Below are positions 30,229-31,100 of a stretch of 64,000 nt of DNA, piece after piece (positions within the stretch are counted from its first letter, which is position 1; each line of letters starts with the position of its first letter). Origin of the DNA: Schmidtea polychroa (lineage: Eukaryota); assembly GCA_044892525.1 (NCBI GenBank), contig CM097885.1, positions 6,636,001-6,700,000 of the forward strand, in the 5' to 3' direction. The notes beneath the pieces were generated by a model. That model saw only the letters and a program-made list of their open reading frames with translations. It did no database searches and had not been told where the DNA came from. Position numbers and translations under genes: made by a program.

Positions 30229-30666
30229 TTAGAAATCGACCAATGAAATTATCTCATTTCGAACATTGTCAACAAATTCTCTATACTCCAAATTTCTCAA
30301 CCCCAACATGACAACCTTTCCACTAGCAAACACGTTGACGCATATAGGGTTATATTTTAATAGTCTTAGTGCCGGAAACAATTCCGGTTCAAACATACAA
30401 TCACATTTTTTCGACATGTTATATAGATTGATACTATGTCCCATATCCATAGTAAAGGTAATTGATTGGATTATAATATTATTTATTCGATATTGTAATT
30501 TATTAATATCCAAAGGTTTCTTACATCCCATGATTCTGCATTTACCAGTCTTGAAAAATATTATCGGATATTTCCCGCTTCTATCGATAATTTGCTGGGG
30601 TTTCCCTGGTGGGAACCTCATATTCGATACATCAAAATTTCCTCGATAATTTATATTTGCTAACAT
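30229..30666 (-). CDS. TATA-binding protein (TBP)-like protein, element-encoded
   Basis: PIIFFKTGKCRIMGCK (repeat 1) and IQSITFTMD...FEPELFPALRLLKYNPICVNVFASGKVVMLG (repeat 2; cf. TBP YEPELFPGLIYRM..P..VLLIFVSGKVVLTG). Confidence 0.88.
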   Translation of the reverse strand: MLANINYRGNFDVSNMRFPPGKPQQIIDRSGKYPIIFFKTGKCRIMGCKKPLDINKLQYRINNIIIQSITFTMDMGHSINLYNMSKKCDCMFEPELFPALRLLKYNPICVNVFASGKVVMLGLRNLEYREFVDNVRNEIISLVDF

Positions 30667-30765
30667 TATTAAATCATTTATGAAAATTAGTCTTTATATA
30701 TAAATTGAGCACGAGTTCATTAAATCATCGAATATAAACAAATACACATTTATAAAATTTTTGAA

Positions 30766-31100
30766 ATGGAATTAAGAAATGATGCAGTATACCAAATCGT
30801 TGGTCCGAGTGGTAGTGGAAAAACATTATTTGTTTGTAAATTACTAAAATCAAATTTATTCAAATCAAAATTCAACAGGATTTATTGGCATAGGGGTGCT
30901 GATGAAAAACATGGATTAACTCAATCAAGTTTCTGTAAATTAAAAAACATGAAAATAGTAAAGGGATTCGATAAAAACTGGTCCAGCCGATTAAAGAAAG
31001 GTGATGTCATTATTATCGATGATTTTTATCAAGAAGCTAATAAAGAAAAAGATTTTAATAATTTATTTACAAAGATCAGCAGACATGTCGGTGTAACAGT
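30766..31100 (+). pseudogene. Maverick A32-like packaging ATPase, 5' half cut by an inserted terminus
   Basis: Walker A GPSGSGKT, Walker B VIIIDD, LFTKISRH; broken at AGTAGTAGG (31098). Confidence 0.9.

Follow-up and report, generated by a model that had tools for sequence, protein, structure and literature searches.

A 64,000-nucleotide stretch of the Schmidtea polychroa genome (assembly GCA_044892525.1, contig CM097885.1, positions 6,636,001 to 6,700,000; hereafter the window, to which coordinates refer unless prefixed) carries a gene for a miniature TATA-binding protein (TBP) within a Maverick/Polinton element. The gene, a 145-codon open reading frame (ORF) at 30229-30666 on the reverse strand, encodes a protein that we term mini-TBP, in which a complete C-terminal TBP repeat follows a first repeat modelled as strands without helices. 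Relatives of this protein are conserved beside the virion genes of related elements, and these virion genes are preceded by a TATA-like motif, YATAAACAW. We propose that mini-TBP is the element's own promoter-recognition factor for YATAAACAW promoters, which it is predicted to bind; we assign this reading a probability of roughly 0.5.

Homology searches place the 145-aa protein in the TBP family, as an earlier note on this DNA had proposed for an intronless ORF said to hold both TBP repeats. The Pfam TBP model (PF00352) matches it in two stretches (E 3.1e-15; 56.2 bits, cut-off 22.9), and TBPs account for 35 of the 36 matches at E ≤ 10 in a phmmer comparison with PDB sequences (best E 1.8e-9). 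Only one of the two repeats proved to be complete. Repeat 2 contains the near-canonical FEPELFPA...NVFASGKVV sequence, i.e., the EPELF stirrup and both phenylalanines (Phe) that the note had singled out, with the acidic C-terminal stirrup present as E93-P94-E95-L96. In an alignment of 50 sequences, comprising the window protein and 49 relatives, residues E95, F97, F113, F38, and P23 are invariant, and E93, P94, P98, and A99 are at least 90% conserved. Repeat 1 is shortened, as had been recognised: a profile comparison of the two halves of the protein aligns residues 23-50 with 98-125 (probability 87%, E 4e-6), pairing P23 with P98 and F38 with F113 and setting K22 at the position of F97, and repeat 1 therefore keeps only one of its two Phe. 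Canonical TBP has two DNA-kinking Phe per repeat, four in total; three of these positions are kept in mini-TBP (F38, F97, and F113) and the fourth is K22. When compared with solved TBPs, the sequence profile aligns repeat 2 only, to either of their repeats, and no second Pfam domain is present in ten longer relatives of 198-275 aa.

Structure prediction agrees with this assignment. The AlphaFold (AF2) model of the 145-aa protein is confident (predicted local distance difference test, pLDDT, 96.1; predicted template modelling score, pTM, 0.83). Residues 59-145 are modelled with strands at 62-74, 90-92, 99-102, 109-113, and 117-123 and helices at 81-85 and 129-142; residues 1-58 are modelled with strands at 2-10, 25-28, 35-38, and 42-48 and no helices at all. 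All 44 matches at E ≤ 1e-3 in a Foldseek search of the PDB are TBPs. A VIA superposition places 145 of 145 residues on residues 66-240 of yeast TBP (Z 13.2; root-mean-square deviation 2.4 A), with human, plant, and archaeal TBPs tying with the yeast protein; identity to cellular TBPs is 23-27% in the structural alignments. Since all 145 residues align, the short protein covers the whole saddle, minus approximately 30 residues that correspond to the repeat-1 helices; it lacks the two complete S1-H1-S2-S3-S4-S5-H2 repeats that make up a core of ~180 aa. As modelled, mini-TBP is a "1.5-repeat" TBP, with repeat 2 complete and repeat 1 reduced to beta-strands and one Phe, and its DNA-binding beta-saddle is predicted to be kept whole by the four strands of the helix-less first half together with the complete second repeat. 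In cellular TBP, the EPEL stirrup docks TFIIB-family factors or Brf1, the repeat-1 helices form the surface that binds TFIIA, NC2, Mot1, and TAF1, and repeat 1 contacts the 3' part of the TATA box. A natural minimal TBP that retains the saddle and TFIIB-type stirrup, and lacks the repeat-1 helices, could help to tell the TBP surfaces needed for promoter recognition from those needed for regulation.

We read 20 kb around each of five genomic copies of the family to which the window gene belongs (family A). On one side of the TBP-like gene, hereafter the virion side, lie an A32-like packaging ATPase (208 aa), a basic 175-aa protein, an rve integrase with a chromodomain, and the proteins p357, p122, and p407; beyond p407 follow an adenovirus-type protease (Peptidase_C5), an Asn-rich protein, and a protein-primed DNA polymerase B (pPolB) with an endonuclease VII motif. 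The opposite side holds a Cys-rich ORF, p137, a weakly Bcl-2-like ORF, and an ORF with a hydrophobic N-terminus. The diagnostic genes are matched by their Pfam families, namely pPolB (PF03175; E 7e-29 in copy L037 and 2.7e-28 at window 48220-50202), integrase (E 1e-8 at window 36979-37470, with rve and chromo domains both present in copy L036), packaging ATPase (Pox_A32; 30.4 bits, cut-off 22.8), and protease (26.8 bits, cut-off 21.3). No Pfam family matches p407; in its nearest Atlas clusters (0.98), which are double-jelly-roll-like, 65% of the members have DJR-like_dom PF21738, and this is no more than a lead. In copy L037/L038, approximately 400 bp homologous to window 26823-27229 recur inverted about 10.8 kb away with 89.8% identity, i.e., as a terminal inverted repeat (TIR); one end only of the family-A copy lies in the window. 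Judged by its sequence, the element that hosts the TBP-like gene is a Maverick/Polinton.

The TBP-like gene is present in many copies across the 781-Mb genome. The protein search scored the 150 best of 4156 first-look candidates, a best-scoring part that is silent on the fraction of broken copies. All 150 scored family-A copies are 98-100% identical and have open frames. For a second family, family B, identity is 95-100% in each of the 150 scored matches, the frames of which are open, in most cases over 171 codons, and a 158-aa ORF is present in nine of the 12 loci read. A search of the genome with the Pfam model found family C, whose 170-aa protein is encoded head-to-head with the ATPase; the Pfam TBP scores of families B and C are 60.8 and 62.5 bits. 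In total, at least three of the genome's element families encode a mini-TBP (145, 158, and 170 aa), and the element is present in at least hundreds of copies. Among 30 family-A loci, 27 encode one identical protein, two encode the window variant (the window itself and a duplicate contig), and one has a frame extended upstream. Conservation among the five copies is concentrated on the TBP-like ORF and the start of the ATPase gene, where DNA identity is 98-100%, compared to 70-94% for the adjacent Cys-rich ORF and 70-97% for the neighbouring accessory genes overall; the spacer between the TBP-like and Cys-rich ORFs gave no match among the five copies compared. For annotation, this means that the scored copies (150 in each of two families, with several thousand further first-look candidates unscored) are element genes and not host TBP paralogues.

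Relatives of mini-TBP are also widespread outside this genome. A word-indexed protein search returned 108 relatives of 96-232 aa with 37-97% identity, all of which contain PF00352. An exhaustive search returned 645 cluster representatives at E ≤ 1e-3, of which 107 reach E ≤ 1e-10; the majority of these matches start at residue 1, and the short architecture is therefore common to them. A scan of metagenome contigs confirmed 169 loci, the best 80 of which (32-57% identity) were fetched. Linkage to Maverick genes, found in the genome copies, extends to these loci: at least one homologue of the element's other genes lies beside mini-TBP in 50 of the 80, and on longer contigs, at TBP identities as low as 35%, a single array unites PolB, the TBP-like gene, ATPase, integrase, p357, and p407. 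Of the 27 loci that hold both TBP-like gene and ATPase, 25 have the two on one strand, with the TBP-like gene mostly just upstream, and in seven loci the TBP-like gene instead follows the protease. The head-to-head arrangement that the earlier note had stressed thus holds for the families of this genome, but is a local inversion rather than a family trait.

The mini-TBP coding sequence is under purifying selection. Between families A and B, the proportions of nonsynonymous and synonymous differences are 0.276 and 0.718 (pN and pS), giving a ratio of nonsynonymous to synonymous rates (dN/dS) of 0.145 with dS saturated. We applied the Nei-Gojobori method to 73 metagenomic ORFs, keeping pairs with dS of 0.1-1.5 and at least 330 sites; the median dN/dS was 0.30 and the maximum 0.78 among 128 pairs, which are not independent of one another. 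In a tree of 39 rows built with a quick method (P0219, P0246, P0215, L120, and L070 having been dropped beforehand), all short forms are split from the two-repeat TBPs by a branch with a Shimodaira-Hasegawa-like approximate likelihood ratio test (SH-aLRT) support of 99; families A, B, and C form one group (support 91). The genome's own two-repeat TBPs (L137, 157.5 bits; L140, 130.9 bits), each with two full repeats, group with other two-repeat TBPs. By this split, the gene is no recent capture of the host TBP. Taken together, the TIR-bounded Maverick context, the at least 150 near-identical intact copies, the syntenic relatives under purifying selection, and the separate clade establish that the TBP-like ORF is a real element gene and not stray host DNA, in line with the earlier note, for which a neutral dN/dS would have spoken otherwise.

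A candidate target for mini-TBP is found upstream of the virion-side genes. The motif was first seen in one copy as ATAAACAA upstream of the ATPase, basic protein, integrase, p357, p122, and p407 genes; in the same copy, TATAAA-type boxes precede the TBP-like gene, p137, the Bcl-2-like ORF, the ORF with the hydrophobic N-terminus, and the protease. We then scored ATAAAC within 120 nt upstream of the ATG, using the metagenomic loci as a set independent of motif discovery. The sense-strand motif precedes 77 of 84 virion-block genes (ATPase 27/27, basic protein 10/12, integrase 12/16, p357 12/13, p122 6/6, p407 10/10), compared to 0/84 on the antisense strand of the same genes, 11/83 in equal-sized control windows inside genes, and 15/108 before other genes; for the TBP-like gene the count is 7/75. 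In the S. polychroa genome, the corresponding figures are 26/28 for virion-block genes and 1/35 for other genes. Tallied over 79 distinct instances, position -1 holds T in 46 cases and C in 27, position +6 holds A in 67 and G in 10, and position +7 holds A in 44 and T in 20, while the flanks outside YATAAACAW are random; the motif has the width of a TATA box. For the ATPase, 15 of 28 instances lie 31-37 nt from the ATG. In the window, sense-strand ATAAACA stands ahead of the family-B block genes at 36377, 36827, 38042, 39039, and 40055, and in a third Maverick copy at 59870, 58776/58746, 57773, and 57524/57462. The TBP-like, polymerase, and SSB-like genes (SSB, single-stranded DNA-binding protein) lack YATAAACAW, and the TBP-like gene of this genome has an ordinary TATATAAAG.

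These observations suggest a two-step programme, in which host TBP would switch on the element's TBP gene through TATATAAAG and the element's TBP would then switch on the virion genes. We envisage that mini-TBP binds the 8-9-bp TATA-like YATAAACAW before the ATPase, core protein, integrase, p357, p122, and p407 capsid genes, that it may recruit the host RNA polymerase II (Pol II) machinery via TFIIB, and that the loss of the repeat-1 helices would free it from host TBP regulators. The DNA binding, the motif as its target, the TFIIB docking, and the temporal order are all features that we infer. The motif departs from the canonical box (TATAAAAG) by a C at position 7, in the part that the altered repeat 1 would contact, which fits the proposal and proves nothing. 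More speculatively, a large clade of animal-associated Mavericks might possess a self-contained late-transcription switch, composed of a mini-TBP without host-control surfaces, a TATA variant of the element's own (YATAAACAW) ahead of each virion-module gene, and host Pol II reached via TFIIB; this wider version is possible, though we lean against it.

Several points weigh against mini-TBP as the reader of YATAAACAW. The link between protein and motif is one of co-occurrence only, and IMG/VR scans with the capsid protein and its alignment, which sought TBP-less relatives as a control, returned 0 loci. ATAAACA is not enriched in the window overall (36 instances seen, 36.2 expected), and the signal therefore lies solely in placement and strand. 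Many instances fall inside the coding sequence of the upstream gene, often read as Ile-Asn-Lys, such that coding may explain part of their conservation; the ATPase instances are intergenic, and in distant lineages the motif shifts relative to the upstream protein, e.g., onto its stop codon. The loci scored are mutually related, so the counts do not represent independent events. Under the usual rule of initiation 25-30 nt downstream, the short distance between motif and ATG would imply leaders of a few nucleotides. Finally, approximately half of the instances (46 of 79) read TATAAAC, a near-canonical TATA box that host TBP might bind unaided, and ATAAACA fits the forkhead core consensus RYAAAYA, so a host forkhead (FOX) factor could read it.

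The last two points lead to an alternative in which host factors, either FOX proteins or host TBP, read YATAAACAW and mini-TBP acts elsewhere, for example at its own or replication-gene promoters or with Brf1 in RNA polymerase III transcription; the genome does contain a Brf1-like gene and several two-repeat TBPs. However, the strict sense-strand placement of the motif and its clustering near the ATPase ATG are the behaviour of a core promoter and not of an orientation-free enhancer, and 27 of the 79 instances begin CATAAAC, which makes a poor canonical TATA box. We consider this alternative unlikely.

Mini-TBP may otherwise be a decoy, the role that the earlier note offered beside that of the element's own promoter-recognition factor, and one that occupies host TATA promoters, or titrates TFIIB or Brf1 through its stirrup, and so damps the transcription of the host or of rival elements; without the repeat-1 helices it would not assemble with TFIIA or TFIID. 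The saddle and the EPELF stirrup are kept, both repeat-1 helices are absent from all 50 aligned relatives, and the surfaces lost are those through which cellular TBP binds its partners. Yet a pure inhibitor of TATA promoters would also strike the element's own TATA-like promoters, and an activator better fits both the tight, conserved placement of the gene by the virion block and the private motif of that block. It is for this conserved promoter-like motif that we favour a promoter factor over a decoy, which we regard as an unlikely role as well.

An improbable third option is that mini-TBP is an accessory for replication or packaging that uses the TBP fold to bend AT-rich element DNA at the termini or at a packaging signal. 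Its gene lies immediately beside the ATPase in 27 loci and beside the OB-fold-like p137 in 20, but the terminal region shows TCAAGGTCA/TGACTCAT repeats and neither YATAAACAW nor a TATA array, this option leaves the conserved TFIIB-type stirrup without a role, and the gene sits after the protease in some relatives. That the gene is a functionless passenger, i.e., a decaying host TBP fragment carried by the element, might be suggested by the truncated repeat 1 and by the broken state of one of the two window copies, but is contradicted by the shared architecture of 50 aligned relatives down to 35% identity, a dN/dS below 1 in all 128 pairs (median 0.30), 150 of 150 scored copies with open frames, a confident structure model, and a clade apart from two-repeat TBPs, and has next to nothing to recommend it.

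A tblastn search of the window with the element proteins revealed three partial Maverick copies, the features of which are listed in the table together with those of the divergent spacer.

Table. Maverick features in the window, in order of position.
Feature	Position	Strand	Remarks
Left terminal region, family-A copy	26760-27230	.	homology with other copies ends near 26822; ~400 bp present again, in inverted orientation, at another copy's far end (TIR)
Family-A fragment	~26822-31104		ATPase cut after ~113 codons
Gene with hydrophobic N-terminus	27336-27794	-	homologue of the 167-aa ORF of other copies
~105-aa gene, weak Bcl-2 family match	27931-28244	+	two reading frames in the window
p137 gene, 136 aa	28982-29392	-	conserved neighbour of the TBP-like gene; weak OB-fold ssDNA-binding-like model
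Cys-rich 99-aa ORF	29736-30035	-	immediately 3' to the TBP-like gene
Short TBP-like gene, family A	30229-30666	-	145 aa, ATG start, uninterrupted ORF
TBP-like protein, first part	residues 1-58		half repeat, modelled without helices
TBP-like protein, second part	residues 59-145		complete TBP repeat
Divergent spacer, TBP-like gene/ATPase	30667-30765	.	99 nt; 93-98% identical in 5 other copies
Canonical TATA-like run TATATATAAAG	30692-30702	-	36 nt upstream of the TBP-like ATG; same bases as TATATATAAA on the + strand
TATATATAAA	30695-30704	+	within the 99-nt spacer
TATAAACAA, YATAAACAW instance	30733-30741	+	33 nt upstream of the ATPase ATG (30766)
A32/FtsK-like packaging ATPase	30766-31104	+	first ~113 codons only; the element copy ends there
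Family-B copy	35191 to ~40400		
Cys-rich 115-aa ORF	35191-35538	-	3' to the family-B TBP-like gene
Second TBP-like copy, family B	35602-35979	-	5'-truncated; homologous from residue ~34, stops upstream
Family-B ATPase	35974-36387	+	codons ~71-208 only
Family-B virion-side block	36538-40400	+	basic core-like protein, rve integrase (more than one frame), two p357 paralogues, p122
Third Maverick copy	48220-59831	-	pPolB, p553/p433, protease, p407 (DJR-like capsid lead), p122, p357, integrase

In the family-A fragment, the region of ~100 nt that the earlier note saw shared between the TBP-like and ATPase genes is the 99-nt spacer, and it does contain TATATATAAA; judged from its position, TATATATAAAG would act as the promoter of the TBP-like gene. 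Contigs of four sequencing runs, for which an RNA origin is a guess, cover the TBP-like ORF (e.g., X2 records 11-13 and X4 record 18), which is no proof of transcription. A single X5 contig with adapter-like loose letters begins at 30757, 24 nt past the T of TATAAACAA, and X5 also shows poly(A)-like loose ends behind 28465 and 28790; as isolated observations, these carry no weight in our reading. The P-loop start of the ATPase ORF (30766-31113) matches Pox_A32 as well as other P-loop families. Families A, B, and C all have the Cys-rich ORF, and none was found among the metagenomic relatives. The p137 protein has no Pfam family; it yields a confident model (pLDDT 89.8), for which the best PDB matches are weak and fall on oligonucleotide/oligosaccharide-binding (OB) fold proteins that bind single-stranded DNA (ssDNA), from phage Enc34 and African swine fever virus (CP312R; E 0.065-1.2). 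The p137 gene adjoins the TBP-like gene in 20 metagenomic loci, and its product may, as modelled, be the SSB of the element; a role as a transcription partner was considered and rejected on account of this weak OB-fold resemblance (best E 0.065) and the missing Pfam family. The match of the Bcl-2-like ORF (E 2.2e-4) is under the cut-off, and another copy of this ORF lies at L035:7102-7419. Within the terminal region, 26760-26990 consists of alternating short repeats of types TCAAGGTCA and TGACTCAT, which we take to resemble a nuclear-receptor half-site and an AP-1 site; these may be terminal regulatory or replication signals. A repetitive stretch at 31161-34251, the frames of which repeat MVLGFSIQKKFFQYK-type peptides, separates the family-A and family-B fragments and matches part of the flank of another copy.

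The diverged second TBP-like copy that the note had placed at 35602-35985 is real, with 54% identity to the first over 98 aa, but it is a broken member of family B, the last homologous codon of which lies at ~35979. The stops upstream of residue ~34 and the start of the ATPase homology at codon ~71, a few bases away, indicate that one deletion took both gene starts and the spacer between them. The window's two TBP-like copies recur on contig C144 (10447-10881 and 15895-16233) with 100% identity and nearly the same spacing, which is probably a duplicate assembly of the window region. The gene for p357, the penton-position protein, is tandemly duplicated in the family-B copy of the window (38061-40153, forward strand) and in a metagenomic relative (L056:5616-7687). 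Upstream of the integrase, a short conserved frame, MG(A/N)NPSLP...SSCC, occurs at L036:1270-1345 and L039:7934-8716 and in the metagenomic loci L042, L046, L056, L061, and L077; its reading frame agrees with that of the integrase in only some of the copies, and it resembles an N-terminus of the myristoylation/palmitoylation type, and in most relatives has YATAAACA approximately 30-35 nt before its ATG.

In the third Maverick copy (48220-59831), tblastn found neither a TBP-like gene nor an ATPase at the integrase end. A 748-aa ORF at 52121-54367 (reverse strand; 42% G+C) has no Pfam match. Just outside the inverted repeat of another Maverick copy, an 887-aa ORF (L037:1-2662, reverse strand) strongly matches PF24664, a family of class III fusion glycoproteins of viruses (E 9.3e-81); kinship between these two ORFs was rejected, as they share no similarity. 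Also among the Maverick copies are a reverse transcriptase (44538-45836, reverse strand; RVT_1, E 3e-32) and a RING-finger ORF (40838-41401, forward strand; E 2.8e-9), and the window contains host exons of Dishevelled and of a myosin head. Elsewhere in the genome, two clusters (C1, ~23.85-24.19 Mb; C3, ~38.2-39.1 Mb) hold thirteen open, intronless frames of 301-310 codons that match the TFIIB repeat weakly (38-44 bits); they form a multi-copy TFIIB-like family that is of interest beside a multi-copy TBP-like gene. The host Brf1-like gene is represented by a cyclin exon at L146:1495-2001, and the host TFIIB-like gene is split by an intron.

Mini-TBP shares with cellular TBPs, both eukaryotic and archaeal, the PF00352 domain, a saddle that superposes over 145 residues, and a complete C-terminal repeat. 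It differs from them in being encoded by a mobile element, in its length (145 aa compared to a core of ~180 aa), in a repeat 1 that has no helices and carries K22 in place of a Phe, and in its Pfam TBP score (56 bits compared to 131-158 bits for the two-repeat TBPs of the genome).

The earlier note did not know TBP as a Maverick or adintovirus gene, which stands in need of qualification: the legend to Figure 5 of Starrett et al. (2021; PMC8502044) marks a "TBP" gene in MELD viruses with an adintovirus-like PolB. The bare fact of a TBP-like gene in a Polinton/adintovirus-related genome is thus in print. That legend gives a label only, from which neither the carrier virus nor the type of TBP, short or otherwise, can be told, and the passages of the paper bearing on it contain no description of architecture, conservation, synteny, or promoters. 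Our literature search on TBP, TATA, or motifs in polintons, mavericks, and adintoviruses found only Starrett et al. and its preprint, although a gene of this kind may be listed in the supplements or figures of Polinton surveys. The present analysis adds the 1.5-repeat architecture, the conservation and synteny over a wide Maverick clade, the high copy number in an animal genome, and YATAAACAW before the virion-side genes. To our knowledge, gene regulation in Mavericks/Polintons, including any virus-like early/late programme, is essentially unknown; given a conserved, selectable regulator together with a conserved cis motif, the question can be tested directly using a single small protein and a 9-bp site.

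Giant viruses are known to encode TBPs, and herpesviruses to encode fold mimics of TBP. The TBPs of giant viruses (Nucleocytoviricota), which are presumed to serve the viruses' own promoters, share the fold and are the top matches of mini-TBP in a viral structure library; in contrast, they are 186-600 aa long and 8-20% identical to mini-TBP, and giant viruses carry their own RNA polymerase, whereas the Maverick element shows none in the genes examined. The single locus found in an IMG/VR scan with the TBP alignment, on a 44.7-kb contig, likewise differs from mini-TBP in that its TBP has two full repeats and groups with two-repeat TBPs.

A functional analogy may be drawn with the late-gene TBP-like proteins of beta- and gamma-herpesviruses (BcRF1/ORF24/UL87 type), which read non-canonical TATT boxes. 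These proteins are large and multidomain, and their kinship with mini-TBP is undetectable beyond weak fold matches (ranid herpesvirus ORF75, E 1.1e-3; BcRF1, E 1.9e-2). The likeness to our proposal would lie in function: in both, a TBP mimic would read a variant TATA box before late virion genes and use host Pol II. If the clade-wide late-transcription switch considered above is real, it would explain why the virion genes of endogenous copies stay silent until the element's early gene fires, and the Maverick system would represent a minimal counterpart of the herpesvirus late-gene pre-initiation complex.

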